This document shows positions 2,648 through 59,620 of a stretch of 64,000 nucleotides of DNA, one piece after another (positions within the stretch are counted from its first letter, which is position 1; each line of letters opens with the position of its first letter). The notes beneath the pieces were generated by a model, which saw only the letters and a program-made list of their open reading frames with translations, made no database searches and had not been told where the DNA came from. The translations under genes and the position numbers were made by a program. This DNA comes from an uncultured bacterium (lineage in GTDB: Bacteria; Patescibacteriota; Patescibacteriia; Magasanikbacterales; GWA2-37-8): NCBI GenBank assembly GCA_937903605.1, contig CALCZC010000028.1, positions 70,680-134,679 on the forward strand, given 5' to 3'.

Positions 2648-3154
2648 ATGTCACAAGATTTAACCAAAGAACAAGTCAATTTTGGAGAAATAGTCTTCTC
2701 TTGGAGTTTCAAAGAATATGAAAAACACGTACGTTCAACTCGTTGGTATTGGCTGATGAGTATTATTGGTTTGGCGATGCTAATTTTTGCGATTCTATCA
2801 CAAAATTATTTGTTTGCGATTATTATAGTTTTGTTTTCCATTATTATTTTTTTGCAGGATAAAAACGATCCCATTGAAATACCTTTTGCCATTGCAGAAA
2901 CAGGCATCATTATAGGTAATAAATATTATAGATTTAGCGAATTAAAAGATTTTTGGGTTATCTACAATCCGCCGGAAGTGAAAGTTTTATATTTTGGTCT
3001 TAAAGAGGTTTTTAAACACCGTTTACATATACCTCTGGGCGATATTGATCCCAGGCCAATTCACGAATATATTAGTCGATTTGTAACTGAAAATTTGGAA
3101 GAGGAAGACGAACCGTTTTCCGATAAAATGGGTCGCCTCTTGAAATTACATTAA
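2648..3154 (+). CDS. hypothetical membrane protein (two TM helices)
   Basis: ORF MSQDLTKEQ... with hydrophobic stretch WYWLMSIIGLAMLIFAILSQNYLFAIIIVLFSIIIF. The ORF-track start at 2597 overlaps the tRNA, so the ATG at 2648 is preferred. Confidence 0.55.
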   Translation: MSQDLTKEQVNFGEIVFSWSFKEYEKHVRSTRWYWLMSIIGLAMLIFAILSQNYLFAIIIVLFSIIIFLQDKNDPIEIPFAIAETGIIIGNKYYRFSELKDFWVIYNPPEVKVLYFGLKEVFKHRLHIPLGDIDPRPIHEYISRFVTENLEEEDEPFSDKMGRLLKLH

Positions 3155-6928: not shown

Positions 6929-8272
6929 TTATGTATGTTTTATAATTTCTTGAATATTTTTTATTTCCATTATCTTGATTTTATCCGTCGGCTTAAGCTT
7001 GTTTTTTGTTCCCAAATTTGTAATCACCGCTTTCATCCCGAGTTGTTCGCATTCTTTTATTCTTTTTTCCGTATAGGGGACAGGTCTTATTTCACCGTTC
7101 AAACCGACTTCGCCAAAAGATGCCAGGCGCGCATCCAACGGTTTATCTTTGAAGGCGCTTGCAATGGCCAGTGCTGCGGCCAGATCTGCCGCCGGTTCGT
7201 CAGCTGTCAATCCACCAACGACATTTAGGTGAATATCATAAGATTCCAAATTCAGGCCAACTCTTTTTTGCAATACTGCTATCAAAACATGTAAACGATT
7301 GAGGTCAAATCCGCTGGCTTTGCGCACCGGATAACCAAAAGATGTTTTACTAACAAGGGCTTGGATTTCCAGGAGCATGGGACGTGTGCCTTCCATGAGA
7401 CAAGTAATAACATTGCCAGATAAATTTTCTTGTCGTTCGGAAAGGAAAGAAGCAGACGGGTTTTTTACTTCCTCTAATCCGTTTTGCGCCATATTGAAAA
7501 CTCCAACTTCATCCGTACTACCGAAACGATTTTTGACTGTGCGTAAAATGCGATAAAAATGATGGCGATCGCCTTCAAGATAAAGCACTGTATCAACTAA
7601 GTGTTCTAGGGTTTTTGGCCCGGCCACTTCGCCGTCTTTGGTCACATGACCAACTAAAACAATAGCTGTATTAGTAGTTTTGGCTACTTCCATTATTTTG
7701 GTAGCACACACACGAATTTGAGATAAACCACCAGCTTCGCCGTCTGATTCCGCGGAATATATTGTCTGGGCGGAATCAATCACGGCCAAGGTTGGTTTCT
7801 TTTCTTTGAGCGTGGCGATAATTTTTTCTACGTGCGTTTCGTTGGCGAGCATCAGTCCGTTGTTTTTTATATCCAATCTGTCGGCGCGCATTTTTATCTG
7901 TTCAATGGATTCTTCACCGGAAATATAAATAGTGTTTTTTATGGCGTTGGCCAATTGTAGGGCGATGGTGCTTTTGCCTATCCCGGGTTCACCGCCAAGA
8001 AGCACAAAACTTCCCGGAACCAATCCGCCTCCCAAAACTCTATCCATTTCACCAATGCCAGTCGCGATTCTTTTTGTTTCCGAACTCTTAATTTCATTTA
8101 ACGATACTGTTTTGATACTTGGATATGCCACTTCGTCTTTTTGGTCATTGGTCATTGGGGCTTGGGATTTATCGATAGTTCCCCATTTTCCGCATTCCAA
8201 ACAACGCCCAACCCATTTTTGAAATTGTGCGCCGCAATTGGAACAGATAAAAATCGTTTGGTTTTTGGACAT
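6929..8272 (-). CDS. radA: DNA repair protein RadA/Sms
   Basis: N-terminal zinc ribbon CSNCGAQFQKWVGRCLECGKWGT. Walker A GEPGIGKST. KNRFG motif. Lon-like C-terminal domain. ATG for MSKNQ at 8272. Confidence 0.9.
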   Translation of the reverse strand: MSKNQTIFICSNCGAQFQKWVGRCLECGKWGTIDKSQAPMTNDQKDEVAYPSIKTVSLNEIKSSETKRIATGIGEMDRVLGGGLVPGSFVLLGGEPGIGKSTIALQLANAIKNTIYISGEESIEQIKMRADRLDIKNNGLMLANETHVEKIIATLKEKKPTLAVIDSAQTIYSAESDGEAGGLSQIRVCATKIMEVAKTTNTAIVLVGHVTKDGEVAGPKTLEHLVDTVLYLEGDRHHFYRILRTVKNRFGSTDEVGVFNMAQNGLEEVKNPSASFLSERQENLSGNVITCLMEGTRPMLLEIQALVSKTSFGYPVRKASGFDLNRLHVLIAVLQKRVGLNLESYDIHLNVVGGLTADEPAADLAAALAIASAFKDKPLDARLASFGEVGLNGEIRPVPYTEKRIKECEQLGMKAVITNLGTKNKLKPTDKIKIMEIKNIQEIIKHT

Positions 8273-12180: not shown

Positions 12181-12218
12181 ATCCTTTTATTTAAAATTTA
12201 AGATTTAAAATTCAAAAG

Positions 12219-14749: not shown

Positions 14750-14850
14750 AGTAAGTTAATAATTGTTTTAAATGTTAATAATTGTTCTAGATGTTTTAAA
14801 AAACAAGTGAAGCGATAAAACAATTAGAACAAGCGCTTTAGCGCGATAAA
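14750..14850. repeat. R1 dispersed intergenic repeat (TTGTTCTAGATGTT ... AACAAGTGAAGCGATAAAA ... CAATTAGAACAAGCGCTTTAGCGCGATAAA)
   Basis: Same motifs recur at 23822-23975, 24361-24415 and, inverted, at 49008-49095. Confidence 0.55.
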
Positions 14851-20761: not shown

Positions 20762-20833
20762 AAAAATTAAATCTCAAATCTCAAAATGCAAATCTCAAAA
20801 CTAAAGTATCGCTTCGCGATATCTAATTAAATT

Positions 20834-20888
20834 GTCCCGTAGGGACACCAAAGTTTTGACTTTTGACATTTGAGTTTTGAGTTTGACC
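20834..20888. repeat. R2 repeat (GTCCCGtagGGGAC hairpin plus CACCAAAGTTTTGACTTTTGA...)
   Basis: Inverted homolog at 31214-31268. Preceded by an ATCTCAAA x3 tandem at 20765-20800. Confidence 0.55.
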
Positions 20889-21543: not shown

Positions 21544-21628
21544 ATTGAATACTGAATATTGTATATTGGATAAAACCAAAAATCCTGACCAATATTCAAT
21601 ATTTAATATTCAATATCCACTATCTATT
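21544..21628. repeat. R3 palindromic element (arms built of AATATTCAATATT / AATATCCAATATT units)
   Basis: attgaatactgaatattgtatattggata...ccaatattcaatatttaatattcaatatcc. Homologous palindrome lies inside the truB ORF at 45841-45915. Confidence 0.5.
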
Positions 21629-23828: not shown

Positions 23829-23975
23829 ATGTTGTAAATGTTCTAGGTGTTATAGATGTTGTAAATGTTCTAGATGTTCTAGATGTTATAGATTATCAAT
23901 TACAACAAGCGCTTTAGCGCGATAAAACAAACATAGTGGTAGAACAATTATAACAAGGGCTTTAGCCTGATAAAT
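23822..23975. repeat. R1 repeat block: tandem 12-18-mers (GTTCTAGATGTT / GTAAATGTT) then ACAACAAGCGCTTTAGCGCGATAAAA and TAGAACAATTATAACAAGGGCTTTAGCCTGATAAATT
   Basis: Direct reading. Left flank of the four-helix-bundle gene. Confidence 0.6.
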
Positions 23976-23987
23976 TATTTAATAAAT

Positions 23988-24359
23988 ATGGGAGGGTTAA
24001 ATTTTAGCTATCAAAATCTTGAAGTTACTATTTTAGCAAAAAAATTAATAAAAGAAATTTATTTTTTTACAAAAAACTTTCCAGCATCTGAAATTTACGG
24101 ACTTACAAACCAGTTAAGAAGAGCGGTAATATCAGTAGCTTTAAACATCGCAGAAGGAAGTAGTAAAAAAAGTTTTACAGATTTTAATAGGTATGTAAGA
24201 ATTGCAATAGGTTCTTTGGTAGAAGTCAATTGTGCTTTGGAAATATCTATAGAATTAGGGTATTTAAAAACAGAAGATTATGAAAAGATAAAATTAGATG
24301 TTCAGCCTCTTTATTTCAAATTAGTATCTTTATCAAAATATTTAACAAACAAGATTTAA
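23988..24359 (+). CDS. four-helix-bundle protein (23S rRNA intervening-sequence protein family)
   Basis: LTNQLRRAVISVALNIAEGSSKKSFTDFNRYVRIAIGSLVEVNCALEISIELGYL matches the conserved QLRRAAISIxSNIAEG...AxGSxxExxTxLxIA pattern of this family. 123 aa. Sits between pheS and pheT. Confidence 0.75.
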   Translation: MGGLNFSYQNLEVTILAKKLIKEIYFFTKNFPASEIYGLTNQLRRAVISVALNIAEGSSKKSFTDFNRYVRIAIGSLVEVNCALEISIELGYLKTEDYEKIKLDVQPLYFKLVSLSKYLTNKI

Positions 24360-24360
24360 A

Positions 24361-24415
24361 AATAACAAGCGCTTTAGCGCGATAAATCAATTAGAACAAG
24401 CGAAAAGCGATATAA
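24361..24415. repeat. R1 repeat (AACAAGCGCTTTAGCGCGATAAATCAATTAGAACAAGCGAAAAGCGATATAA), right flank of the four-helix-bundle gene
   Basis: Direct reading. Same core as 14821-14850 and 23903-23926. Confidence 0.6.
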
Positions 24416-24429
24416 CTATCATTAATTTT

Positions 24430-26892
24430 ATGAATATATCATACAACTGGCTGAAAAAACACGTCACTTTGCCTGATTCCATCACTCCTGAAATAGTGGC
24501 GGAAAAATTGAAATTGAGCACAGTAGAAGTGGAAAATATCATCAAACAAGGTGATAACTTGGAAAATATCGTAGTTGGTAAAGTGCTCAAAGCCGACAAA
24601 CATCCCAATGCTGATAAATTGAAACTTTGCCAAGTGGATTTGGGAAAAGAAAAAGTCCAGATTGTTTGTGGTGGCAGTAATGTTACTACTGATATGCTCG
24701 TAGCGGTGGCCAAAGTTGGTGCCAAAGTTTCTTGGCACGGCGAGGGGGAGTTGGTGGAAATCGTACCGACCAAAATCAGAGATATAGATTCCTATGGCAT
24801 GATTTGCGCGGGGAGTGAGATCGGACTGGCCGAAATGTTTCCGCCCAAAGATGAAAAAGAAATTTTGGATTTGACCGCACTGAATTTGAAAGTTGGGGCG
24901 GAGTTAAAAAAAGCGCTTGGACTCGATGATGTGATTTTGGAAATTGACAATAAATCTCTTTCCAATCGTCCCGATCTCTGGGGACACTACGGTATCGCTC
25001 GCGAAGTAGCCGTGCTTTTTCCGCGTGATTTTGGAGTTTACGAAACAAAAGATATAACTCCGGGTAAAGAAATAAAATTGAAAGTTACAGTAGAGGACGA
25101 ACCGCTTTGTCCGCGTTATATGGCGGTGGCGATAAGCGGAGTACAAGTCGGTCCGTCGCCTCTGTGGTTACAAAGAGCACTGTCATCTATCGGTTTGCGC
25201 AGTATCAATAACATCGTGGATATCACCAATTATATAATGTTTGATTTGGGGCAACCCCTTCATGCTTTTGATGCTCAAACTCTACAAACAAAAAACAAAA
25301 ATCAAAAACACATCATTGTTCGCACGGCAAATGACAAAGAAAAATTCAAACTATTGGATGAAAAAGAATTGTCCTTGACGGAAAATGATTTGGTAATTGC
25401 AGATGATGAAAAACCTATCGCGCTTGCCGGGGTAATGGGCGGATTTTATAGCGGGATAAACGACAAAACAACAGAAATTATTTTTGAAGCCGCAACTTTT
25501 GATCCGGTGTGTGTGCGTAAAACCGCGTTGCGCTACGATAGTCGCACAGATTCTTCCGCTCGTTTTGAAAAAAGCTTGGATCCCAATATGGCGGAAATAG
25601 CTTTGAAAAAAGCGGTAGAGATGGCACTGGAGCTTTGTCCGCAGGCTAAAGTGTCTAGCAATGTTGAAGATAAAAAGAATTTTCACTTAGCTACCGGACC
25701 ACTGCAAACAAGTGTGAATGACATTTGTAAAAAACTCGGAGTGCAAATTGAGAAAAAAGAAATTGTCGGCATCTTGCAAAGATTGGGTTTTGAAGTTAAA
25801 GAAAAAGGTAAAGACGGTCTGAGTGTCAAAATTCCGACTTGGCGCGCTACCAAAGATATATCGCTTTCCGAGGATTTGATTGAAGAGGTTGGTAGGATTT
25901 ACGGTTATGACAAGATAGATAGTTTCATGCCGGAATTTGAAATTACTCCGCCGGAAAAAAATATTTTACGCGATTTGGAACATAACTTGCGAAATATCTT
26001 GACCAAAGAACTTGGTTATGATGAAGTTTATAACTATTCTTTTGTCAGCGGTTTGCAAATAGATCGTCTGGGTGAAGGTAAAAATAAATATTTGGAATTA
26101 GATAATCCGCTTTCCAGTGAAAAACCTTATTTACGTCGAGAGTTGTTGCCAAACTTATTGGAAAACATTCAAAAAAATATAGAAAATTTTGATCGCGTGA
26201 ATATTTTTGAAATCGGCAAAACATATTTATCCGAATTTCCCGGTGCCAGAGCCGTGGCCAACGAAGACGATCTATTGCCACGTCAAGATACTTTTTTGAG
26301 TGTTGTAAATTATGAGAAAAAAAGCGATAACGGTTTTATCAAAGCTCGTTTGGCTTTGGAAAAAGTGATGGAAAATTTGCAACTTAGTTTTGTAGTGCGA
26401 GAGATCAAAGAAATCAAAGGTTATATGCATCCGGGCAGAGCCGGGGAGATAGTGGTAGGAGATCAAAAAATAGGTTTTATCTACGAGCTCAATCCGCTCA
26501 TTGCCAAAAAATGGGATTTAAACGACAGAGTTGGAATAGTGGAAATAAATCTCAGTGATTTGCGAGATATTTTGAAAACCAAAAAAGATTTTGTTTATCA
26601 AACATTATCTCAATTTCCGGAACCGACTCGAGACTTGGCTTTTGTGGCGGAGAAAAAAGTTACACATCAAGAAATTTTGGAAGCGTTAAAACACATTTCG
26701 CCGATTTTGAAATCCTTAGAATTGTTTGATGTTTATGAAGGCGAACACGTCAAAGCCGGATTTAAAAGTATGGCGTATCATTTTGTTTTTTCCGACTCTA
26801 CTCGTACTTTGAAGAATGAAGAGGTAGATGATGTGATGGGGGAGATAATAAAAATATTGAAAGATAAGTTTGGGGTGGAAGTGAGAGGGTAA
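24430..26892 (+). CDS. pheT: phenylalanine--tRNA ligase beta subunit
   Basis: N-terminal tRNA-binding (OB) domain VGKVLKADKHPNADKLKLCQVD. B3/4 and B5 domains. C-terminal FDVYEG motif. 820 aa. Confidence 0.9.
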   Translation: MNISYNWLKKHVTLPDSITPEIVAEKLKLSTVEVENIIKQGDNLENIVVGKVLKADKHPNADKLKLCQVDLGKEKVQIVCGGSNVTTDMLVAVAKVGAKVSWHGEGELVEIVPTKIRDIDSYGMICAGSEIGLAEMFPPKDEKEILDLTALNLKVGAELKKALGLDDVILEIDNKSLSNRPDLWGHYGIAREVAVLFPRDFGVYETKDITPGKEIKLKVTVEDEPLCPRYMAVAISGVQVGPSPLWLQRALSSIGLRSINNIVDITNYIMFDLGQPLHAFDAQTLQTKNKNQKHIIVRTANDKEKFKLLDEKELSLTENDLVIADDEKPIALAGVMGGFYSGINDKTTEIIFEAATFDPVCVRKTALRYDSRTDSSARFEKSLDPNMAEIALKKAVEMALELCPQAKVSSNVEDKKNFHLATGPLQTSVNDICKKLGVQIEKKEIVGILQRLGFEVKEKGKDGLSVKIPTWRATKDISLSEDLIEEVGRIYGYDKIDSFMPEFEITPPEKNILRDLEHNLRNILTKELGYDEVYNYSFVSGLQIDRLGEGKNKYLELDNPLSSEKPYLRRELLPNLLENIQKNIENFDRVNIFEIGKTYLSEFPGARAVANEDDLLPRQDTFLSVVNYEKKSDNGFIKARLALEKVMENLQLSFVVREIKEIKGYMHPGRAGEIVVGDQKIGFIYELNPLIAKKWDLNDRVGIVEINLSDLRDILKTKKDFVYQTLSQFPEPTRDLAFVAEKKVTHQEILEALKHISPILKSLELFDVYEGEHVKAGFKSMAYHFVFSDSTRTLKNEEVDDVMGEIIKILKDKFGVEVRG

Positions 26893-27087
26893 AAAAACAA
26901 AGCCCTAAGCTCTAATTTCTAATCTCTAAACAAGTTCAAATATAAAATTTTAAAATTTGATATTTAATATTAAATATTGTTTAGGATTTAGAATTTAGGA
27001 TTTAGTTATTAAGCTTTTTTACAAAATTTTTAAAAAGTGTTATAATATTTACAAGATAATAAATAATTAATTTAACAAGGAGGATCT

Positions 27088-27474: not shown

Positions 27475-27710
27475 ATAAAAAAACCTCGCTATAGCGAGGT
27501 TTTTTAATAGTTGCCAAAAGTTAAATTTTTAGTTATTATGAAGTAGCCAAAGGGAGGGTCTTTTTGGTTTATTTTTTTGTAGTATAACTTGGTTGTCATC
27601 CTGAACCCAAAGGGTGAAGGATCTATAAGTAAGATAAAATTATGAATTAAACGCATTGCTTTTTACAGATTCTTCGTTTCACCCAGAATGACAAAATGGT
27701 TTCGTTATTC

Positions 27711-27738
27711 AAAAATCTAAAATCTAAAATCTAAAATT
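27711..27738. repeat. tandem heptamer AAATCTA x4 immediately upstream of dnaE
   Basis: aaaatctaaaatctaaaatctaaaattg. Confidence 0.5.
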
Positions 27739-27743
27739 GTCTT

Positions 27744-30700: not shown

Positions 30701-31214
30701 AATTATTGAATTCGCCAAGAAAAAAATTACGCGTAGCGGTAAAACTATGATGTTTGCAACTATTGGCGATTTGACCGATAAATTGGAGCTTTTGATTTTC
30801 CCAAAAACTTACGAAACCACCAAGGATGTTTGGGTAGAAGGAAGAAATGTTTGTGTGATAGGGCGTACCAGCGAAGAAGAAGGGGATAATAAATTGTTTG
30901 TGGAAAAAGCATATGAGATAACACCGGAAAATTATATGGAGCTTACACAACAATTGGCAATGGGTAAAGAGCTTGGTTCTTCAAACGAAGAAAATAGTTT
31001 AAGAGAAGAAAGTATTACTTTGATTTTAAGTCTTGCGCAAGTCAAAGAAAAAGCCGATGTTATAAAAAGTATTTTGGCTAAATATCCGGGCGATATGCAG
31101 GTTTATCTTCGTGTCGGAGATAAGACGATAAAGACGCAATATCAAATAACATTTGACGATAATCTTAAAAAAGAGTTGGAAGATTTGTTGGGAGAGGGGA
31201 AGATAGTTATATAA
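27744..31214 (+). CDS. dnaE: DNA polymerase III alpha subunit (GTG start)
   Basis: PHP domain start SFTHLHVHSHYSLLDGL. Polymerase core and OB fold. 1156 aa. Confidence 0.9.
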   Translation: MSFTHLHVHSHYSLLDGLPKIKELVKTAKKRGFSALALTDHGNMYGAIEFYEACLKEEIKPIIGMEGYIASGSRFEKNPQDKYFHILLLAENYTGYRNLMKLSSLAHTEGFYYKPRMDKELLRQYSEGLICSTACMGGEIPRILHKENNYEKAKATALEYDEIFGRGNFFLELLDVPALEGQAEVNNQLIQISKETGIPLIVTRDVHYLNPEDAEAQDTLTCIRDGKTLEDTDRNTMVGMDFSLCEEKEIATRFKHVPEAIENTGKIAQRVNLVLELNKWHFPPIELPPGKTADEYLRDEVYTRLPKLIEFTDTVKERADYELGIIAKKGYSPYFIAVAEYVNYARENGIMETTRGSGAGSIVSYAMGITTVNPLFFKLPFERFLNPYRPSPPDIDADFADDRRDEMIAYVTKKYGEDKVAQIITFGTMMARGAIRDVGRALGYAYSFCDQVAKLIPAGAQGFQVTIAKALELEPDLKDLYNKNAQVKRLLDLAQKIEGCARHTSIHAAGVVISPTPLTDFTPVQRETGGERIVTQYEMHTVEAAGVLKMDFLGIRNLSILGRAVEIIEKTAGVKIDVFNIPWDDKKTYEMLARGETVGVFQLSSSGMTRYLKELKPSSIFDIMAMVALFRPGPMAVIPDYIARKQNPDLIKYLDPRMESYLDQSLGLIVYQDDVLLTAINLAGYNWEEADKFRKAMGKKIPEEMEKQKEKFFKGCKEVGKLKPELIEELWHLIEPFAAYGFNKAHAASYAVVAYQTAYLKANYPIQYMTAILIAESGDMDKVPEVIHECEKMGIKVLPPDVNQSFKSFAMITPDDGSTPYIRFGLNGVKNLGEHIAEVIYRTRKDGGKYQTLEDFIKRVNDKDLNKKSLEALIKCGALDAFGYDRGVLLNNIENLLNFIKQNNEQNNSNQNSLFAGSSIGFSNKIKIKDAPPATKEEMLKWEKELLGVYVTAHPFEFYAKKMEKCLTPIKELTNLGKKQWVVIGGIIEFAKKKITRSGKTMMFATIGDLTDKLELLIFPKTYETTKDVWVEGRNVCVIGRTSEEEGDNKLFVEKAYEITPENYMELTQQLAMGKELGSSNEENSLREESITLILSLAQVKEKADVIKSILAKYPGDMQVYLRVGDKTIKTQYQITFDDNLKKELEDLLGEGKIVI

Positions 31215-31268
31215 CTCAAAAGTCAAAACTCAAAAGTCAAAACTTTGGTGTCCCGATAAATCGGGACG
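31214..31268. repeat. R2 repeat, inverted copy of 20834-20888 (CTCAAAAGTCAAAACTCAAAAGTCAAAACTTTGGTGTCCCGataaatCGGGAC)
   Basis: Reverse complement aligns to gtcccgtagggacaccaaagttttgacttttga. Confidence 0.55.
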
Positions 31269-31332
31269 ATTAATTTTAAATTTTTAATTGCAATTTTGCA
31301 TTTTTAATTTTAACTTTTAAATTTTTTGCATT

Positions 31333-32176: not shown

Positions 32177-33235
32177 TTAACCTATTTCCCAAGTCGGATT
32201 TGCTTGTAGTTTTTTCCAAGGAATAAATTTTTTATTTTTGGCTTTGTAATATCCGGCTACTGCCAGCATGGTGGCGTTATCCATACAATATTTTAATTCC
32301 GGTATTAGCAACAGCACGCCTAAAGGTTTGATTTTTTCTTCCATAGTTTGACGCAATTTGGTGTTAGCTGTGACTCCGCCTCCCATCACAACAGTTTTGG
32401 GTTTATATTTTTTGATAGCGCGAACGGTTTTTTCTGTGAGCACATCAATGATAGCTTGTTCAAAACTTGCGCAAAAATCTTGTAGTTTCTTTTTGTTGTT
32501 AGCTGGATTTTTTTGTAGATGATAAAGTACAGCGGTTTTCAGACCCGAGAAACTAAAGTTGAAATTATCTTGATTGAGCATAGGTCGTGGAAAATCTATT
32601 GCTTTACCATTTCCTTTTTGAGCCAAGATAGAAATTTTTGGTCCACCAGGATAAGAGAGTTTGAGCATTTTAGCAACTTTATCAAAACATTCTCCGGCTG
32701 CATCATCCAATGTCGCGCCGATTAATTTATAATTGCCTGGTTTTTTCATCAAAACGAGTTCAGTGTGCCCACCGCTGACAATCAGAGCCAGAGCGGGATA
32801 TTGTATGGACTTCGGACTTCGGACTTCGGACTTCGCTCGGTTATTTTTTTGAAGTCTGTAGTCTGTAGACTGAAGACCGATCTCCACCGAATGGATATGA
32901 CCTTCGAGGTGATTCACGGAAACCAAAGGTTTTTTTAGGAAGTAAGAAAGATTTCGAGCAGTTTCTACTCCGACAATCAATCCAGTGATAAGTCCTGGAC
33001 CGGAAGCCACAGTTATGATATCCGGTTTTCCTTCTTTGCTTATCTCTTCAACCAAAGGGATAATTTTTTCCGCGTGCATGCGGCCGGCGATTTCCGGTAT
33101 AACTCCGCCGAATTTTTTATGTAAATCTATTTGTGAAGCGGTTTTTTCCGCAATTACAAAAAAACCCTTATTCGAGCATTCGACTAGGGCAACAGATGTG
33201 TCATCACATGAACTTTCAATCGCTAAAATTTTCAT
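32177..33235 (-). CDS. tsaD: tRNA N6-adenosine threonylcarbamoyltransferase TsaD (Kae1/YgjD family), with about 20-aa insertion
   Basis: MKILAIESSCDDTSVALV. HLEGH metal-binding motif. SGGHTELV block. 352 aa. Confidence 0.85.
   Translation of the reverse strand: MKILAIESSCDDTSVALVECSNKGFFVIAEKTASQIDLHKKFGGVIPEIAGRMHAEKIIPLVEEISKEGKPDIITVASGPGLITGLIVGVETARNLSYFLKKPLVSVNHLEGHIHSVEIGLQSTDYRLQKNNRAKSEVRSPKSIQYPALALIVSGGHTELVLMKKPGNYKLIGATLDDAAGECFDKVAKMLKLSYPGGPKISILAQKGNGKAIDFPRPMLNQDNFNFSFSGLKTAVLYHLQKNPANNKKKLQDFCASFEQAIIDVLTEKTVRAIKKYKPKTVVMGGGVTANTKLRQTMEEKIKPLGVLLLIPELKYCMDNATMLAVAGYYKAKNKKFIPWKKLQANPTWEIG
32807..32872. repeat. R4 palindromic element (GGACTTCG x3 ... T-run ... GAAGTCTGTAGTCTGTAGACTGAAGACC) lying in frame inside tsaD
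   Basis: Encodes IGLQSTDYRLQKNNRAKSEVRSPKS between the HLEGH and SGGHT blocks. Homolog at 45429-45488. Confidence 0.55.
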
Positions 33236-33239
33236 AAAA

Positions 33240-33509
33240 TCAATTTAAATACTTTTTGCTTCGAAGAGTTTTTTCCAGTTGAATTTTTAATTCATTGTGA
33301 CCTTTACCGCCTTTAAAAAATAATTCGCGTTTTTTTGCATCATCCCTACTTAAGTATGCTTCGTAATAAATCAATTTCAAAGGTCTTCGAAATTTTGTTG
33401 CTTTTACTAAACCGTTGGAATGGTTTAAATACCTTTGCTTTAAATTATTTGTATAACCAATATACAATTTTTTGTCTTTTTGACTGTATAATATATAAAC
33501 GTAAAACAT
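33240..33509 (-). CDS. GIY-YIG nuclease superfamily protein (UPF0213-like)
   Basis: MFYVYILYSQKDKKLYIGYTNNLKQRYLNHSNG: GIY...YIG spacing plus R and N residues. 89 aa. Confidence 0.8.
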   Translation of the reverse strand: MFYVYILYSQKDKKLYIGYTNNLKQRYLNHSNGLVKATKFRRPLKLIYYEAYLSRDDAKKRELFFKGGKGHNELKIQLEKTLRSKKYLN

Positions 33510-33526: not shown

Positions 33527-33649
33527 GGACGCTAAGCGTCCTTTTAAGATTACGTTAATTTAATTGTGGAGTGGGACGCTAAGCGTCCCTATTACAACGC
33601 TCAGCTTAGAGTGGGACGCTAAGCGTCCCGAATACGACGCTAAGCGTCG
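33527..33649. repeat. cluster of four palindromic hairpins GGGACGCTAAGCGTCCC between tRNA-Met and the GIY-YIG gene
   Basis: Copies at 33527-33541, 33573-33589, 33613-33629 and 33636-33649 (GACGCTAAGCGTCG). Confidence 0.6.
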
Positions 33650-33650
33650 T

Positions 33651-33724
33651 GTCAGGGGGGAGAGTCGAACTCCCGACCTAAGGGTTATGAATCCTTCGCT
33701 CTTACCAACTGAGCTACCCTGACA
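33651..33724 (-). tRNA. tRNA with CAT anticodon (elongator Met or Ile2/lysidine)
   Basis: Reverse strand GTCAGGGTAGCTCAGTTGGTAAGAGCGAAGGATTCATAACCCTTAGGTCGGGAGTTCGACTCTCCCCCCTGACA. Acceptor GTCAGGG/CCCTGAC. Anticodon loop TTCATAA. T-arm GGGAGTTCGACTCTCCC. Confidence 0.8.
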
Positions 33725-43584: not shown

Positions 43585-45114
43585 TTATTTAGCGTATTCC
43601 ACAACTCGAGTTTCGCGAATTATGGTAACACGGATTTCACCGGGATATTGTAATTCTTGCTCAATACGACGGCAAACATCTTTGGCCAATTGATAAGCGG
43701 CATAATCATCAATTTCGCTAGGTTTGACAAAAATCCTGACTTCTCTACCAGCCTGAATAGCGTAAACTTTTTCAATACCCATGAAACTGCTGGCAACTTT
43801 TTCCAATTCTTCCAAACGAGCGACAAACTGTTCGTAACTGTCTTTGCGAGCTCCGACTCGAGAAGAAGAAATAGCGTCCGCCGCTTTCGCAATAGACGAA
43901 TATACATTATATGGTTTATCCATATGATGGGTGAGAGCAGCTTGAGCAATTTCTTCGTCAATATTGAATTTTTTAAGCAGTGCATAACCGATTTCTGGAT
44001 GAGAACCTTGAGTTTCTTGATCAACTGCTTTACCGATATCATGGAAGAAACCGCATTTTTTAGCTTTTGCTTCGTCCAATTTTAATTCTCCGGCAATGAT
44101 GGACGATAGATAGGCCACCTCAATGGAGTGATTAAGAATATTTTGACCGTAAGAAGTACGATATTTCAAACGTCCAACAATACTGACCATTTTTGGGTCA
44201 AGTCCGGTAATACCGAGTTTATATAGCGCTTCCTCACCGGCTTTTTTGATATCAATAGCCAAGTCTTGTTTGGCTTTTTCTACAAATTCTTCAATACGTG
44301 CCGGTTGAATACGTCCATCTTCTATCAATTTTTCCAAAGCTAATTTAGCTACTTGACGACGGATGGGGGAGAAACCGGAAACTGTAATAGTTTCCGGAGT
44401 ATCATCAATAATCAGTTCGCAGCCAGTTAATTTTTCGATTGTTTTAATATTGCGACCTTCTTTACCAATAATACGCCCTTTCATTTCTTCGCTTGGCAAG
44501 GTTACGGCAGTTGATGTGGTTTCTGCGGCATGAGAAGAAGCGCAACGTTGAATTGCGGTGGTGATTATTTCTCTGGCTTTATCTTCATAAACTTCACTGG
44601 CTTCTTTTTCTACTTTCATAACTCGACTTATCAAATCTGCTTGAGAGTCAGTTTCTATTTTATGAAAAAGTTGTTCCTTAGCTTGTTCCGGAGTCATACC
44701 GGCAACTTGTTGCAACTTTTGTTCCTGTTGTAGTTTGATTTTTTCAATATCTTCTTTGACTTTGTTTACCAACTCTACTTTTTCTTGAATTTTTTGTTGT
44801 TTATCCTGTAACTCCAAAAGTTTTTGGTCAAACATGCTTTCTCTTTTTTCCAAACGTTGTTGGGTGGCAGAAAGATCTTGACGTATTTGCCTTTCTTCTT
44901 TTTTGGTTTCGTCAATGATTTGGACCGCTTTTTCTTTGGCTTCCAAAATCAAAGTTTGATATTTGCTTTTAGCTTCTTCAAGCATTTTTTCCGCCTTAGC
45001 TTCGGCTGAATTAGCGGCTTTAAGAGCGGTTTTTTTACGCCAATAATAACCGACAAAAACCCCACCTATCAAGCAGACGATTGATCCGCCGATAGTATAG
45101 ATTACGATATTCAT
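43585..45114 (-). CDS. rny: ribonuclease Y
   Basis: N-terminal TM. Coiled-coil region. KH domain (IIGKEGRNIKTIEKLTG). HD domain (HSIEVAYLSSIIA...FHDIGKA). 509 aa. Confidence 0.9.
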   Translation of the reverse strand: MNIVIYTIGGSIVCLIGGVFVGYYWRKKTALKAANSAEAKAEKMLEEAKSKYQTLILEAKEKAVQIIDETKKEERQIRQDLSATQQRLEKRESMFDQKLLELQDKQQKIQEKVELVNKVKEDIEKIKLQQEQKLQQVAGMTPEQAKEQLFHKIETDSQADLISRVMKVEKEASEVYEDKAREIITTAIQRCASSHAAETTSTAVTLPSEEMKGRIIGKEGRNIKTIEKLTGCELIIDDTPETITVSGFSPIRRQVAKLALEKLIEDGRIQPARIEEFVEKAKQDLAIDIKKAGEEALYKLGITGLDPKMVSIVGRLKYRTSYGQNILNHSIEVAYLSSIIAGELKLDEAKAKKCGFFHDIGKAVDQETQGSHPEIGYALLKKFNIDEEIAQAALTHHMDKPYNVYSSIAKAADAISSSRVGARKDSYEQFVARLEELEKVASSFMGIEKVYAIQAGREVRIFVKPSEIDDYAAYQLAKDVCRRIEQELQYPGEIRVTIIRETRVVEYAK

Positions 45115-45428
45115 ATGTTATAAATAAAAAAATCCCAAGATTTTGGGAAGTTAAACATGTTTTAGCTTTATTTTAGCTAAAAAATCACTTATTTTACTTA
45201 TCCTTGGTACTTAAATTACAAAACTGCCAAAAATATTTTTTGGCTCAATACAGCTAAATTTGAAGTTTTGTTATTAAGATTGAAATTTGACATAACCTGT
45301 CGGTTTTCTATTACAAAAGGATAAATTCACAAACAGTGATAAGGCAGTTTAACTTCCGGAATCAAGATTGTTAATGAATTAATTTTGTATCTCCATTATA
45401 GCAATAATTTGTCTTTTTGTCAAACTGG

Positions 45429-45488
45429 TTGGTCTTCAGTCTGCGGTCTTCAGTTTTTTGTAGCCTGAGGTCTGAGGACCGAAGTCAA
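45429..45488. repeat. R4 palindromic element overlapping the last 13 codons and stop of truB
   Basis: ggtcttcagtctgcggtcttcagttttttgtagcctgaggtctgaggaccgaagtc. Homologous to 32807-32872. Confidence 0.5.
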
Positions 45489-46256
45489 ACACATTGCATC
45501 TTTTAAGTCGTAGTCGCCAATTTTAGTTCGTTTTAGTTCTTGGCAATAGGCCCTGGTATTCAATTTTTTTCCAATATCTTCCGCCAGAGTACGGATATAT
45601 GTTCCGGGGGAACAGGTGACGGTTATTTTTAAAACAGGATATTGATAACCCAAAATTTGTAAGTCAAATATTTCAATCTTGTTTGCTTTTCTTTTTATCT
45701 TTTTTCCTAAGCGCGCCAGTTTATAAAGTCGTTGCCCGTCTATCTTTTTAGCGGAAAACATTGGGGGAATCTGGTTTTGAGAGCCGATAAATTTTATCAG
45801 AATTTTTTCTATTTCAAGTTTTGAAGGAACATAAGGATGGATACTGGATATTGGATACTGGATATTATTTGAAAATATTTTTAATATCCAATATTTAATA
45901 TCCAATATTATTTTTTTGAGGGAACTTAATTTAAAAGGTGTGATAACCCCTGTTTTATCCCCAGTGTTTGAAACTTCACCCAACTTTATCGTCGCTTCAT
46001 AAGTTTTCGGCAGATTTTTGAAGTTTTCAATTTCTCGTGTAGCTTCGCGTCCGATTGCGACAATGAGCAATCCGGTGGCAAAAGGATCCAGCGTCCCGGC
46101 ATGTCCCACACGCGGTTTTTTAACTTCCGGATTTTGTTGGCGAAATATTTTTCGGATATATCCAACCACATCAAAACTGGTCCAGCCTTCGGGCTTGTTA
46201 ATTAGTAAAAAAGTATTTGATTCAAGTTTGAAATTGTTTTTAGTAATTATATTCAT
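45450..46256 (-). CDS. truB: tRNA pseudouridine(55) synthase TruB (no PUA domain) carrying an in-frame palindromic insertion
   Basis: Catalytic HAGTLDPFATGLL. FIGSQNQIPPMFSAKKIDGQRLYKLAR. 268 aa. Confidence 0.85.
   Translation of the reverse strand: MNIITKNNFKLESNTFLLINKPEGWTSFDVVGYIRKIFRQQNPEVKKPRVGHAGTLDPFATGLLIVAIGREATREIENFKNLPKTYEATIKLGEVSNTGDKTGVITPFKLSSLKKIILDIKYWILKIFSNNIQYPISSIHPYVPSKLEIEKILIKFIGSQNQIPPMFSAKKIDGQRLYKLARLGKKIKRKANKIEIFDLQILGYQYPVLKITVTCSPGTYIRTLAEDIGKKLNTRAYCQELKRTKIGDYDLKDAMCLTSVLRPQATKN
45841..45915. repeat. R3 palindromic element inside truB, 75 bp (25 codons, encodes IILDIKYWILKIFSNNIQYPISSIH)
   Basis: atactggatattggatactggatatt-atttgaaaatattttt-aatatccaatatttaatatccaatatt. 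Arms are reverse complements. Reading frame is maintained. Confidence 0.6.
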
Positions 46257-49007: not shown

Positions 49008-49095
49008 GTTTTATCGCGCTAAAGCGCTTGATATAAATGATTTATCACTTCGTTTGTTTATATAACATTTAGAACAATTATAACATTTAACAACT
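49008..49095. repeat. R1 repeat, inverted orientation (TTATCGCGCTAAAGCGCTTG ... ATTTATCACTTCGTTTGTT ... TAGAACAATTATAACA)
   Basis: Reverse complement of CAAGCGCTTTAGCGCGATAA and AACAAACGAAGTGATAAAT; compare 14802-14850. Confidence 0.55.
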
Positions 49096-53304: not shown

Positions 53305-53454
53305 AAGTGAAAATTATTAATTATTGTTTATTGATTATTAATATTTCTTTATTTCTTTCTTTAAGGGAGGGAGAAAGAAGTATTTTAAAATAATCAATAA
53401 ACAAGAGTTAAAAATAAATAAGGATAAATAAACAATAAATAATAAACAATAATT

Positions 53455-54408: not shown

Positions 54409-54479
54409 AAAACACTAATTTGAAAACACGAATTTTTACACTAATCAACACAGATAAACAAAAATAAAAAATACAAAGT

Positions 54480-54552
54480 GTCATCCCTGCGAAAGCAGGG
54501 ATCCAGGAAAAGTTAAACAAGCCACTGGATTCCTGCTTTCACAGGAATGACA
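54480..54552 (+). ncRNA. R5 structured element, copy 2, with compensatory substitutions relative to copy 1
   Basis: gtcatccctgcgaaagcagggatccaggaaaagttaaacaagccactggattcctgctttcacaggaatgaca. The CCCCGC/GCGGGG stem becomes CCCTGC/GCAGGG, and TCCGCC/GGCGGA becomes TCCTG/CAGGA. Confidence 0.4.
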
Positions 54553-54563
54553 AAAACAAAACT

Positions 54564-57500
54564 ATGTATTCACGAACAGTAACACAATTTGATCTGATGA
54601 TGAAAACGATAATGATCGTGTTGTTTGTGTTTGGTTTGTTCGTATTTTTTGTTGATGTTACCAAAGCCGCACAGTGGGTAAATAATCCGGCTAATTGTGC
54701 GACCCAATCTCCCGGTGGAGAAGTTGTTTGTCAAACAAGCGAAACTCCGGATTCTCGTGTTTGTGGGGTCAGCGGAGTTCAATATTATTGTTTTTCAAGT
54801 GTGGCTGTATTTAGCGCTCCTGGATATACACAAAATAATAATCAAAATAGAAGCGGTTTAGGTGGTGGTTATATTATGGATTGTGAAGCAAACGATGGCG
54901 TTCCGCCAAGTGGGCCATTTTGTGACAATAGCACAGCTTTTTGGTGCAATAGTGATGTTACTTGTAATGATAAATTTAGAATTACTCGATGTAGCTCTAG
55001 TAAATGGGCTTATGAAGCAAATGCTTTTTCTTGTACAGATTGTATTTCAACCAGATTGGATTGTAGTGGAGATGATGTGTGTGAGGTGGTAAAAGGTGCA
55101 ACAACTTCATCCACTGTTCCAAATGCAAATTATGGAAATACTTGTGATAGCGTTGTTTGTAAAAGTGGTTATGAAAATTGCAACACTAGCACCTTGGATT
55201 GGAGTGATGGTTGCGAAATACAATTTAATGTTAGTACTTGTACAACAGGCGGAGGTGAACCGGGAGTTTGGACAGCTTGCGGAGTTTGTACAGCTTTACC
55301 GCCAAAATATTTCTTGACTGCTAGTAATACGGATTATTATTCAGACAAACCACTTCTTTGGGGAACACAACTGGGAAATGGTGATCTTGTCAGTTTCAGC
55401 AACGCAACTTCTTCAAATATTTTTGTAGTGAAAAACGATGCTTCTGTGTTTATGAGTTCCACCTTAGCCACAACCACGGATAAATATTTTTATAATTACA
55501 ACGGAGATTTATATTGGGGTGATATGAAATTGGGAACTGGTGGGGGAGTAACATATACTGCTGGCAGTGGACTAAATTTAGCCGGATATGAATTTACCAT
55601 TGATACTTCTACTGATTTTAATTGGACAGGACAGCATACTTTTAATACAACTACGACATTTCCGCTTGGAGTTTGGGGCGCGGATGGCAGGGTTGGTATT
55701 GGTACAACTACCCCTACCTCTAGTTTATCGTTAGTGGTTGGTGATTATGATGGGATTACTTTGTTTGATGCTACCGGACAAATGGCAGCGGGCTTGGGAG
55801 CCGGTGGTAGTGCAAACGCAGGACTATCTTTGTTTAATCGTATTTCTGGTGATATGAGTGTTTCTTTAAATTCTGATTCTAATTCATATATAAATAATGA
55901 TTATAATTTTGGTATTGGGACCACAACACCGGATTATAAATTTACTTTAGATGGAGATGGGTTTTTTATGGCGAGAGGATTGACTCATAATCCAATTATT
56001 TATGGTTATCAAGGTGAAATATTGGGGCAAACAGGAGAAGGTTCTAGAACATTTTTTTATCCAAGAAAATCAGCTTTTAGAAGTGGTGTAATTACTGATA
56101 TGTCAGTATTTGGTATGGCTTTTGGTTATCCATTTTCAAATGAAGTTGATCAATGGGATGATAATAATATTGGCTCGGCTTCTTTTGCAGCTAATGTAAA
56201 TAATAAAGCCAGTGGACTTTCTTCAGCGGCTTTTGGAACACACAACATTGCTTCAGGGACATCTTCTTTCGTGGGCGGTGGTAATGCTAATGAAGCCGCT
56301 GGATTAACCTCTATAGTTTTAGGCGGAACCGGTAATTTTGTTGGAGCTGAAGGATCAGGTATTGTAGGTGGTTGGTCAAACACTTCAACAGGTTTTAGTG
56401 CTTTTATCGGTGGTGGTAGATATAATATAACTTCAGGTGATTACTCTTTTATTGGTGGTGGTAGATATAATGTAGCTTTAAGTGATTATTCTGTTGCTTT
56501 TGGTAGTTATATGACGGTTTCCGGAACAAATTCTTTTGGTATAAATCTTTTTGGTGGTGGTATTTCTTCTACTCTAGCTCAAGATAATACTTTTGCAGTT
56601 ATGGGTGGAAATGTGGGGATTGGAACAACTACTCCGCAGCATACATTAACTTTGGCCGGAGATTTTGATATTGCTGAAAATGGCCTGTTAAAATTTAACG
56701 GAATTTCAGGTTCTGTTGATCAAGTTATCAAAATAAACACCTCCGGTTTTCCAGAATGGGTGGATGTTGATTCTCTTTTCATAAACAATACAACATTTAA
56801 TAGCAGCACCGAGTTTAACAGCACCAGCACTTTTAATAGCACCGCGATTTTTGAAGGGCCTTCATATTTCAATAATGATGTTTTTGTCAGCGGAACAATT
56901 TCTTCAACCAATTTATATGTAAATGGTAACAGTACAACAACCGGTGATCTGTATGTTCTCGGTCAAGCTATATTTCACGATATTTTACCAGCGGATAATT
57001 TAGCTTATGCGATAGGAACTTCTACGTTTGTTTGGAAAGAAGGTTGGTTTGGAAAAATATTTACTCCGGAAATTGATTTTACAAATAATTGGAAATTATC
57101 TACTACGACCGACGGAGGATTGGTATTTACTAGCTCTACCCAAGTGGCGTTGGCGATACTTTCTACCGGACAAGTGGGAATAAATACTACAACAATAGAA
57201 GCGAATTTAAAGATTAAGGTAGATGGAAATATTGGTTCCAAACTATATTGCGATGTAAATGGAAATAATTGTTTTGATCCGAACGCTTTCGGCTGGGCCA
57301 CTCCTCAAGCTAGATATATGAATACCACAACTGCTAATTATAATGGAAATTTTGGTAGTTTTCCGGCGGCTAGTGGGACAATTGGTTATGAAGCCGCAAA
57401 TCATATCTGTAGCTCTACGGTTGGTGTTGGTTATCATATTTGTCAGGCAAATGAAATTTTGGATATTATCAGAATTTATGGCACTAGCACGTTTGCCAGT

Positions 57501-57689
57501 AAAACAAACGGATGGGTAGCAAATGGTCCTCCAGGGTATGTCACGGTATCTACAAATGATTGTGAAGGATATACCACCTCTACCGTTAGTTTTTATGGAG
57601 CATGGTGGAAATTTAACGACAGTAGTGGTGGAGGAAGTGGAAAAATGACCAATTGCAGTACTCTCCAACCAATAGCGTGTTGTAAATAA
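54564..57689 (+). CDS. large secreted surface protein (paralog 2): signal anchor, Cys-rich N-module, Gly-rich tail-fibre-like repeats, shared C-terminal ACCK module
   Basis: N-module GGGYIMDCEANDGVPPSGPFCDNSTAFWCNSDVTCNDKFRITRC ... TCTTGGG. Repeats of type SFVGGGNANEAAG / YSFIGGGRYN. Motif MGGNVGIGTTTPQ. C-term GYEAANHIC...GPPGY...NDCEGYTT...GAWWKFNDSSGGGSGKMTNC...IACCK. 1041 aa. Confidence 0.65.
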   Translation: MYSRTVTQFDLMMKTIMIVLFVFGLFVFFVDVTKAAQWVNNPANCATQSPGGEVVCQTSETPDSRVCGVSGVQYYCFSSVAVFSAPGYTQNNNQNRSGLGGGYIMDCEANDGVPPSGPFCDNSTAFWCNSDVTCNDKFRITRCSSSKWAYEANAFSCTDCISTRLDCSGDDVCEVVKGATTSSTVPNANYGNTCDSVVCKSGYENCNTSTLDWSDGCEIQFNVSTCTTGGGEPGVWTACGVCTALPPKYFLTASNTDYYSDKPLLWGTQLGNGDLVSFSNATSSNIFVVKNDASVFMSSTLATTTDKYFYNYNGDLYWGDMKLGTGGGVTYTAGSGLNLAGYEFTIDTSTDFNWTGQHTFNTTTTFPLGVWGADGRVGIGTTTPTSSLSLVVGDYDGITLFDATGQMAAGLGAGGSANAGLSLFNRISGDMSVSLNSDSNSYINNDYNFGIGTTTPDYKFTLDGDGFFMARGLTHNPIIYGYQGEILGQTGEGSRTFFYPRKSAFRSGVITDMSVFGMAFGYPFSNEVDQWDDNNIGSASFAANVNNKASGLSSAAFGTHNIASGTSSFVGGGNANEAAGLTSIVLGGTGNFVGAEGSGIVGGWSNTSTGFSAFIGGGRYNITSGDYSFIGGGRYNVALSDYSVAFGSYMTVSGTNSFGINLFGGGISSTLAQDNTFAVMGGNVGIGTTTPQHTLTLAGDFDIAENGLLKFNGISGSVDQVIKINTSGFPEWVDVDSLFINNTTFNSSTEFNSTSTFNSTAIFEGPSYFNNDVFVSGTISSTNLYVNGNSTTTGDLYVLGQAIFHDILPADNLAYAIGTSTFVWKEGWFGKIFTPEIDFTNNWKLSTTTDGGLVFTSSTQVALAILSTGQVGINTTTIEANLKIKVDGNIGSKLYCDVNGNNCFDPNAFGWATPQARYMNTTTANYNGNFGSFPAASGTIGYEAANHICSSTVGVGYHICQANEILDIIRIYGTSTFASKTNGWVANGPPGYVTVSTNDCEGYTTSTVSFYGAWWKFNDSSGGGSGKMTNCSTLQPIACCK

Positions 57690-57713
57690 TTAATAAGTTA
57701 TAAAGCAAACAGT

Positions 57714-59615: not shown

Positions 59616-59620
59616 AATAA

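Follow-up and report, generated by a model that had tools for sequence, protein, structure and literature searches.

The stretch of DNA analysed here (the window) comprises 64,000 nucleotides of contig CALCZC010000028.1 from an uncultured bacterium of the candidate phyla radiation (CPR; Patescibacteria), which the names carried by homologues assign to Candidatus Magasanikbacteria. On the reverse strand it carries a tsaD gene, the open reading frame (ORF) of which contains, in frame, a short inverted repeat that we call R4; a related copy lies at the 3′ end of the truB gene. Both host genes encode RNA-modification enzymes, as the original prediction, made from the letters of the window, had proposed: TsaD was identified through PDB entry 6nak_B and TruB through the Pfam domains TruB_N and TruB_C_2. 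Coordinates of all features are given in Table 1.

In the tsaD copy of R4, a 16-nt loop separates two arrays of four heptamers each, one inverted relative to the other. One arm is perfect, and in the other deviations from the unit place a single mismatch in the stem about every 7 nt. The ends of the element coincide exactly with codon boundaries. It had been described as a 66-nt palindrome with a central T-run. The sequence is as described and the T7 is present, but the element ends at position 32878, 6 nt further, and is 72 nt long; the inverted arms are real, although a pair of inverted tandem-heptamer arrays is a better description than a palindrome. The calculated hairpin energy was −30.2 kcal/mol for the + strand and −20.8 kcal/mol for the − strand (z ~ −4.2), and none of 200 shuffled sequences folded as well. 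The terminator scan listed neither R4 copy, and the T7 sits in the loop and not 3′ of the stem. Since no U-tract follows either stem, neither hairpin is an intrinsic terminator. Comparison with Rfam covariance models yielded 0 matches to R4 at the gathering score and chance-level ones only (E >= 0.2).

Alignment with Thermotoga maritima TsaD (6nak_B) covered residues 1–118 and 144–348 of the window protein and left 25 query residues opposite 5. The insert site, a loop in this alignment, is located directly after the NHLEGHIHS motif, which contains the HxxxH metal-binding residues, and the insert stands in place of a loop of ~4 residues. The suspicion that this segment is an insertion was borne out by ortholog alignment: it is missing both from the TsaD of relatives at 72–78% identity and from the T. 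maritima protein. The window TsaD has kept the residues that do not vary among 30 homologues, both histidines of NHLEGH among them, and an identical protein is on record from 6–7 contigs of several sources. Independent assemblies agree on an intact frame, and the invariant residues are kept; an assembly artefact and a pseudogene, the outcome against which the original prediction had cautioned, are therefore excluded. An AlphaFold2 model of TsaD had a mean predicted local distance difference test score (pLDDT) of 80.2, with means of 49 and 45 for residue blocks 121–130 and 131–140. In this model the insert is mostly coil and lies between a helix (109–118) and a strand (148–154), and it most likely represents a translated, disordered surface loop of 24 residues. 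Such a loop would be neutral and not required for t6A synthesis.

A stable hairpin within an ORF could also mean that the insert is left untranslated, either through ribosome bypass of the kind seen in T4 gene 60 and the mitochondrial byp elements or through removal from the mRNA. Mobile hairpin inserts are indeed bypassed in some mitochondria. However, in tsaD there is no stop after the take-off codon, the flanking codons ATC and ATA are not a matched take-off and landing pair, and neither intron or intein features nor an Rfam match were found. As all carriers keep an open frame and an insert length divisible by three, bypass or excision is scarcely credible.

The DNA of six relatives was fetched and aligned to compare the states of the tsaD site, with identity to the window calculated for tsaD upstream and downstream of it. 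Locus L007 (80% and 73%) has AAATCTAAAATA alone, encoding KSKI, and represents an empty site; the TsaD proteins P0008, P0009 and P0011, which are 72–74% identical, likewise have KSKI or NSKI only. Locus L002 (97% and 94%) reads GAT(TCAAAAA)x4TT, which is the empty site plus exactly 21 nt (3 units). At L008 (77% and 79%) AATCTAA/AATCAAA units surround a different G+C hairpin. Loci L004 and L005, two independent assemblies (98% and 96%), contain GGACTAAGAAAA, (GGACTTC)x4, A, GAAGACC GTAGACA GAAGACT GAAGACT, with the perfect arm on the opposite strand; by manual count the arms of L004 match those of the window at 50 of 56 positions when inverted and at 41 of 56 when read directly. The window element itself recurs at 72/72 identity in L009 (94% and 91%) and at 70/72 in L006 (80% and 74%). 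The perfect (GGACTTC)4 array is present in L006, L009 and a further locus, L214, and on the opposite strand in L004. In every carrier examined, the inverted copy included, the length of the insert is divisible by 3 and there is no in-frame stop. The state of the site does not track the divergence of the host gene.

The comparison with L006 is the most informative. The two tsaD genes are 43% identical at 4-fold sites and 54–58% identical at third codon positions, while 23 of the 24 third positions within the element are identical. Both differences sit in the loop (14/16 identical), and the degenerate arm is the same in both. The probability of at least 70 matches in 72 is 7e-7 if calculated from the overall flank identity and 3e-23 if calculated from the identity at 4-fold sites. 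The borders of the element are sharp: 10 nt or less beyond each border, identity has fallen to background, and in the adjoining 150 nt it is 79% and 81%. R4 was not merely inherited and left to drift, since it scarcely differs between hosts with saturated neutral sites but, in strains that are 95–98% identical, is missing, inverted or exchanged for another sequence. This pattern of sequence identities indicates that R4 spread laterally or re-inserted recently. Selection at the nucleotide level that the closest strains had escaped would be a less economical explanation.

Selection could alternatively have acted on the protein, if a lineage-specific TsaD loop were favoured for interaction with a partner or with tRNA. 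The preserved frame and the nearly alike peptides of proteins P0003 and P0005 fit such a loop. In L006, however, both differences from the window are nonsynonymous (N-N-R-A to N-K-R-T), strains 95% identical have no insert, and the region is mostly coil with low pLDDT. The inverted copy of L004 codes GLRKGLRTSDFGLQKTVDRRLKT at the same site; because this peptide is unrelated and what is conserved is the nucleotide sequence, an adaptive protein feature is very improbable.

The second copy, which had been placed across the 3′ end of truB, proved real and overlaps the stop codon of that gene. The window copies have an exact 12-mer, AGACTGAAGACC, in common in inverted orientation (0.11 matches expected by chance). 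Within the window alone, arm identity is ~75% when the copies are compared inverted and ~71% when compared directly. Because the window arms hardly separate the two orientations, the claim that the copies are mutually inverted rests on the orthologue alignment A4. This alignment upheld both their kinship and their inversion: all six aligned R4 copies fall into one orientation and have a GGACTTC-type arm, a GWAGAC-type arm and CGAT in this order. The truB copy of locus L211 terminates with GTAGTCTGTAGACCGAAGACCGAT, that of the window tsaD (+ strand) with GTAGTCTGTAGACTGAAGACCGAT, and a 24-nt signature, GTAGTCTGTAGAC[C/T]GAAGACCGAT, is common to both. Neither the other fetched loci nor the viral contigs contained this R4 terminal signature.

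At identities as low as 67%, TruB orthologues terminate with LTSDFGLQTTKDSRQ, LTSDYGL or LTSDYGLQITKDHRL, all of them in-frame translations of (GGACTTC)n; others have LPLK as their last residues. At L210, L211 and L212, diverged heptamer-phased versions of R4 occupy the orthologous place in truB, and behind each lies the TTGACA −35 box of the rny-leader promoter. In some lineages the sense-strand hairpin of the truB copy has decayed (z −0.7 to −1.3). Judged by these alignments, the truB copy appears to be the older of the two and to diverge by vertical descent, and the tsaD copy to be a more recent derivative. The rny (RNase Y) leader is itself untranslated and ~280 nt long, is conserved in L210–L212 and contains two terminator-like hairpins; it had no Rfam match.

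The position of the truB copy raises the possibility that R4 is a functional cis-element under nucleotide-level selection, for instance an mRNA or antisense structure, a cruciform or protein site, or, at truB, a 3′ stabiliser or an insulator placed before the rny promoter. Conservation of the element is far above that of surrounding synonymous sites, the truB copy is kept in the orthologues to 67% identity and always lies between the truB stop and a consensus promoter, and, of 11 coding copies, 10 have a better fold on the antisense strand than on that of the mRNA. Yet the closest strains are without the element or have it inverted or replaced, and the decayed truB hairpins also argue against a required structure. 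There is no U-tract and no Rfam match, and antisense promoter-like matches are at noise level. We therefore regard a cis-acting function as improbable, though less so for the truB copy.

The original prediction had defined R4 as a repeat family built of its heptamer. The truB copy is a relative, but the heptamer alone is a ubiquitous simple sequence repeat (SSR) and defines no family. Arrays of at least three GGACTTC units were found in 120 or more metagenome contigs, the GC of which ranges over 0.37–0.70, and in 10 viral contigs, often beside GGCCTTC, GGATTTC, GGTCTTC or CGACTTC arrays, and some are paired with inverted (GAAGAC)n, which results in the same periodic mismatch. Because the heptamer recurs so widely, we assigned membership of R4 by the asymmetry of the arms together with the terminal signature, GTAGTCTGTAGACYGAAGAC followed by CGAT. 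Read directly, all six frames of the GGACTTC unit are free of stop codons, which eases its survival inside genes. Loci L090–L224 include (GGACTTC)n and one-base variants of it across very different GC, giant-virus and phage contigs among them, and in L129 and L166 the arrays lie inside long ORFs.

R4 belongs to a wider class of hairpins with heptamer arms. A strict hairpin scan is blind to them, because periodic mismatches defeat it, and detection was therefore changed to one based on periodicity. The window contains 12 period-7 tandem arrays, compared to 0.0 in shuffled sequences; for periods 5, 6 and 8–12 the number is 0–2. Period-7 arrays are frequent in the lineage of the window and in one Magasanikbacteria genome, but seldom occur in ~75 other TsaD loci of bacteria; the latter came from a search of contigs with a TsaD-alignment profile that returned mostly distant phyla among the matches listed and served as a negative control. 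Most arrays are inverted pairs of about four units each that form hairpins in intergenic spacers, with a unit of its own at each locus. Members of multi-copy families show 93% complementarity over 42 nt or 92% identity over 26 nt. The orthologous spacers of close relatives contain different hairpins or none; the dnaE-fpg spacer, for example, is ~20 nt long in L007 and 118 nt in the window. Heptamer arrays or hairpins are also found in frame in the window genes recG, radA, pheT, tsaD and truB. The unit of the radA array is one that we take to be the STRR2 unit of cyanobacterial short tandemly repeated repetitive (STRR) sequences.

Table 1. Positions of R4, its host genes and other heptamer-based or neighbouring features in the window
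Feature	Position	Strand	Remarks
tsaD	32177..33235	-	tRNA t6A37 threonylcarbamoyltransferase, 352 aa, intact; PDB 6nak_B E=7e-79; Pfam PF00814
R4 element in tsaD	32807..32878	-	72-nt quasi-palindrome, codons 120-143 (24 codons of the tsaD ORF), translation GLQSTDYRLQKNNRAKSEVRSPKS; absent or different in close relatives
R4 perfect arm, (GGACTTC)x4	32807..32834	+	Tandem Repeats Finder 4.1 copies, 100% matches; tsaD sense strand (GAAGTCC)x4, giving KSEVRSPKS
R4 loop GCTCGGTTATTTTTTT, 16 nt	32835..32850	+	T7 at 32844-32850; sense strand A7TAACCGAGC, giving the (Q)KNNRA stretch
R4 degenerate arm, GAAGTCT GTAGTCT GTAGACT GAAGACC	32851..32878	+	1-nt stem mismatch about every 7 nt
truB	45450..46256	-	tRNA pseudouridine-55 synthase, 268 aa; Pfam TruB_N/TruB_C_2; named TruB in sources
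R4 copy at truB 3′ end	45431..45487	-	left arm encodes the last 12 residues, LTSVLRPQATKN; stop TGA (45450-45452) opens the right arm
Consensus sigma-70 promoter of rny leader	45395..45423	-	12/12 matches and TG extension; directly downstream of the truB R4 copy
rny leader region	45114-45423	-	
R3 heptamer hairpin inside truB	45838-45909	-	TGGATAC/ATATCCA units; in frame, codes DIKYWILKIFSNNIQYPISSI
Short in-frame array in recG	5279-5299		
Short in-frame array in radA	8138-8158		unit TTGGTCA, also in L002
Short in-frame array in pheT	25284-25309		
Intergenic heptamer arrays, most paired	653-686, 12188-12217, 20769-20884, 21544-21619, 26893-27010, 27707-27739, 31213-31326, 53312-53452		
GIY-YIG gene	33240-33509	-	89 aa; between tRNA-Met and tsaD in the window, L002, L004 and L008

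The TsaD loop itself is frequently altered. On inspection of the loops of 118 related TsaDs, we judged that well over one-third have insertions after HIHSVEI; these include R4-like inserts at 56–60% identity (P0037, P0050 and P0041), other heptamer hairpins and unrelated palindromes, some of them nested. Across the clade, these sequences mark the loop after HxxxH as a hot spot of insertion, and the clade TsaDs have at least three such spots altogether (alignment A1; proteins P0001–P0120). P0003, P0006 and P0010 contain another palindromic element, ICHAELVSASPRRAKGRSRNKFGMTD, after LQKNP, and the tsaD of L214 has a second (GAAGTCC)n array, after EEISK. As to truB, the R3 hairpin is present in many TruB relatives, some of which have palindromic elements nested in it or substituted for it (WIPAFAGMT, CLPAGR, GRDGDSSSARASVGMT), and R3-related copies occur at 21544–21619 and in the dnaE-fpg spacer of L004. 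A palindrome at 54479–54552, GTCATCCCTGCGAAAGCAGGGATCCAG ... CTGGATTCCTGCTTTCACAGGAATGAC (−43 to −47 kcal/mol), is of the type that codes the WIPAFAGMT/VIPAKAGIQ-like inserts of TruB.

The abundance of heptamer arrays is most pertinent to an account in which R4 is of local origin and not mobile. The A-rich loop AAATCTAAAATA would have seeded slippage, the arms would have grown by 7-nt steps of which net multiples of 3 survived, intrastrand template switching would have made, and would maintain, the inverted arm, and the likeness to the truB copy and to other genomes would be convergence. Consistent with this account, heptamer arrays of many distinct units are found genome-wide, L002 has the empty site extended by 21 nt (3 units), one arm is always fully homogenised, the 7-nt period of the mismatches fits separate concerted evolution of each arm, and (GGACTTC)n arrays with inverted partners arise in many phyla. 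Heptamers are, in addition, an over-represented SSR class in bacteria, possibly via polymerase slippage (PMC4692102), which we count in favour of a local origin. It is harder to reconcile with the identity of the degenerate arm and the 14/16 identity of the loop in L006 despite near-saturated neutral sites, with the non-repetitive terminal signature in common with the L211 truB copy, or with the R4 unit, which has no evident relation to the resident AAATCTA/TCAAAAA units. A purely local origin accounts for a good deal of the architecture but is, in our judgement, unlikely.

We propose that R4 is probably a small, non-coding, self-propagating palindromic repeat (a ‘protein-coding palindrome’) that is tolerated in a TsaD loop and is translated and neutral there. 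R4 would have entered or replaced the short surface loop behind the HxxxH motif. It would have survived in tsaD because 72 nt is a multiple of 3, there is no in-frame stop and the loop tolerates extra residues, and it would be transcribed and translated with tsaD as a disordered loop of 24 residues. More generally, the selfish repeat would disperse and be kept in genes only where the frame stays open and the fold intact. After insertion, slipped-strand mispairing would reshape each arm and homogenise one of them to a perfect array; concerted evolution of the arms by slippage could explain why one arm is always perfect and why mismatches recur every 7 nt. R4 may also be able to flip or to re-insert in either orientation. 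As to the mover, one guess is a trans-acting enzyme that recognises hairpins and another is copy-choice or template switching into resident A-rich heptamer tracts.

Several points weigh against this proposal. The junctions of the tsaD and truB copies show no direct repeat that could be a target-site duplication, and no terminal inverted repeats separate from the R4 arms were found. The 64-kb window contains no transposase, RAYT (REP-associated tyrosine transposase) or IS200-like gene, and no insertion sequence (IS) or transposase cognate to R4 was found within it. A loose search of the window for heptamer arrays recovered R4 at two loci only. The key comparison involves a single 1.4-kb metagenome contig, L006. 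The (GAAGTCC)4 arm is identical even in L214, where TsaD is only 60% identical, and this may reflect a favoured unit and concerted evolution rather than transfer; similarly, the recurrence of GGACTTC in unrelated bacteria and viruses could mean that part of the similarity between copies is convergent. Finally, translation, neutrality and strict mobility of R4 are inferred.

Possible vehicles of R4 were considered and rejected. The GIY-YIG gene next to tsaD suggested homing; however, intron-less homing would co-convert the 357 nt between gene and insert, yet they are 80% identical between the window and L006. The gene is absent in L007, the locus with the empty tsaD site, where a G+C-rich palindromic stretch follows the tRNA instead (2800–3000). 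Homologous recombination of a tsaD segment was rejected for lack of raised identity within ±150 nt (79%, 81%) and for the sharp borders. A phage vector was rejected likewise: viral contigs do not contain the R4 terminal signature, and viral (GGACTTC)n are unrelated arrays, mostly in high-GC contigs. A leading-strand bias, with all hairpins better on the + strand, gave a mixed result and was dropped as a general rule. On the far side of the GIY-YIG gene, a 40-nt tandem repeat of 1.9 copies with GGGACGCTAAGCGTCCC hairpins (33569–33648) abuts tRNA-Met (33649–33723).

Among known elements, R4 behaves most like the Rickettsia palindromic elements (RPEs). As summarised from Ogata et al. (2000, 2002) in PMC10969869, these are short palindromic repeats of a reduced genome that form several families, many of them in frame in unrelated housekeeping genes, fold-compatible and translated. 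According to the same source (PMC10969869), they are ~100–150 bp long, have conserved family sequences coding conserved peptides and are regarded as old. Like RPEs, R4 is in frame in a conserved gene, at a surface loop, and is missing from orthologues; there is more than one copy, including one in another gene (the truB 3′ copy), and a second array in the tsaD of L214. In contrast to RPEs, R4 is 72 nt long, has tandem-heptamer arms, is found in either orientation at a single site, bears marks of having spread recently and resides in a CPR host. It is no member of RPE-1 to RPE-10, being set apart by length, arms and host.

The arms resemble bacterial heptamer SSRs such as the TAACTGA (PMC4679880) and GGGNATC (PMC4692102) repeats. 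In common with these and with STRR sequences, they are few-copy 7-nt tandem arrays, mostly intergenic, abundant in a lineage, variable between close relatives and sometimes located in ORFs. With 4.1 copies of the unit, where at least 3 are asked for, and over-representation of such arrays (12 versus 0.0), R4 falls within the heptamer SSR/STRR definition. STRR-type repeats are, however, described as direct arrays of a single unit, while here we see inverted pairs, long hairpins, a periodic mismatch, many units per genome and an in-frame location in essential genes.

R4 is also like repetitive extragenic palindromes (REPs), the hairpins formed by REP doublets (REPINs) and bacterial interspersed mosaic elements (BIMEs) in that these are short, imperfect, non-coding palindromes in many copies, thought to be mobilised in trans as hairpins (PMC3116915, PMC3733652). 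Unlike R4, REPs are extragenic and 20–40 bp long, have a GTAG or CGTC head that is conserved and come with a RAYT gene; R4 is intragenic, lacks a conserved head tetranucleotide, has GTAG only in a variant arm heptamer, and is accompanied by no RAYT gene in the window. [quoted passage not shown] ERIC, Correia and BOX (PMC10969869), it has in common a small size, non-autonomy, a location within ORFs and presence/absence polymorphism. In MITEs, by contrast, terminal inverted repeats enclose an internal region, the target site is duplicated and there is a cognate IS; none of these features was found for R4 in the window. Cyanobacterial small dispersed repeats (SDRs), reportedly described by Elhai and colleagues in 2008, are said to be very small and mobile, to be nested in hairpins and tandem heptamer tracts and to have a conserved core of 21–27 nt. 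R4, unlike SDRs as so described, conserves its architecture and short terminal signatures. A limited literature search turned up no account of palindromic or heptamer elements lying in frame in CPR.

The window contains further repeats. A 30–50-nt repeat, CAATTAGAACAAGCGCTTTAGCGCGATAAA, is present in five copies (14821–14850, 23897–23926, 23945–23974, 24357–24386 and, as reverse complement, 49010–49059), three of which flank a gene of the 23S_rRNA_IVP family (23988–24359). The region 54564–64000 contains several large genes without Pfam matches, with 45-nt (15-aa) Gly-rich and other internal repeats; these repeat-built genes probably encode surface proteins.

To our knowledge, clear selfish palindromes translated inside essential genes are rare outside Rickettsia. 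Possible, if doubtful, is a generalisation beyond R4, by which CPR genomes of the Magasanikbacteria type would host tiny mobile elements: hairpins of 60–120 nt with arms of about four heptamers that are active, cross diverged lineages, home to the same codons of an essential-gene loop in either orientation, nest within each other, lack a recognisable transposase and add disordered segments to core proteins. At a single codon boundary of tsaD, near-identical strains present empty, heptamer-array, forward and inverted states, and a 97%-identical copy is found in a strongly diverged host. The tsaD site therefore offers a chance to observe such elements active and to identify the mover. The finding helps to explain the length variation of CPR core proteins (327–405 aa among TsaD homologues and 215–310 aa among TruB matches), and for annotation it means that low-complexity segments and odd C-terminal tails in CPR proteins can be repeat read-through. 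It also ties the long-noted surplus of heptamer repeats in bacteria to elements that form hairpins and disperse.

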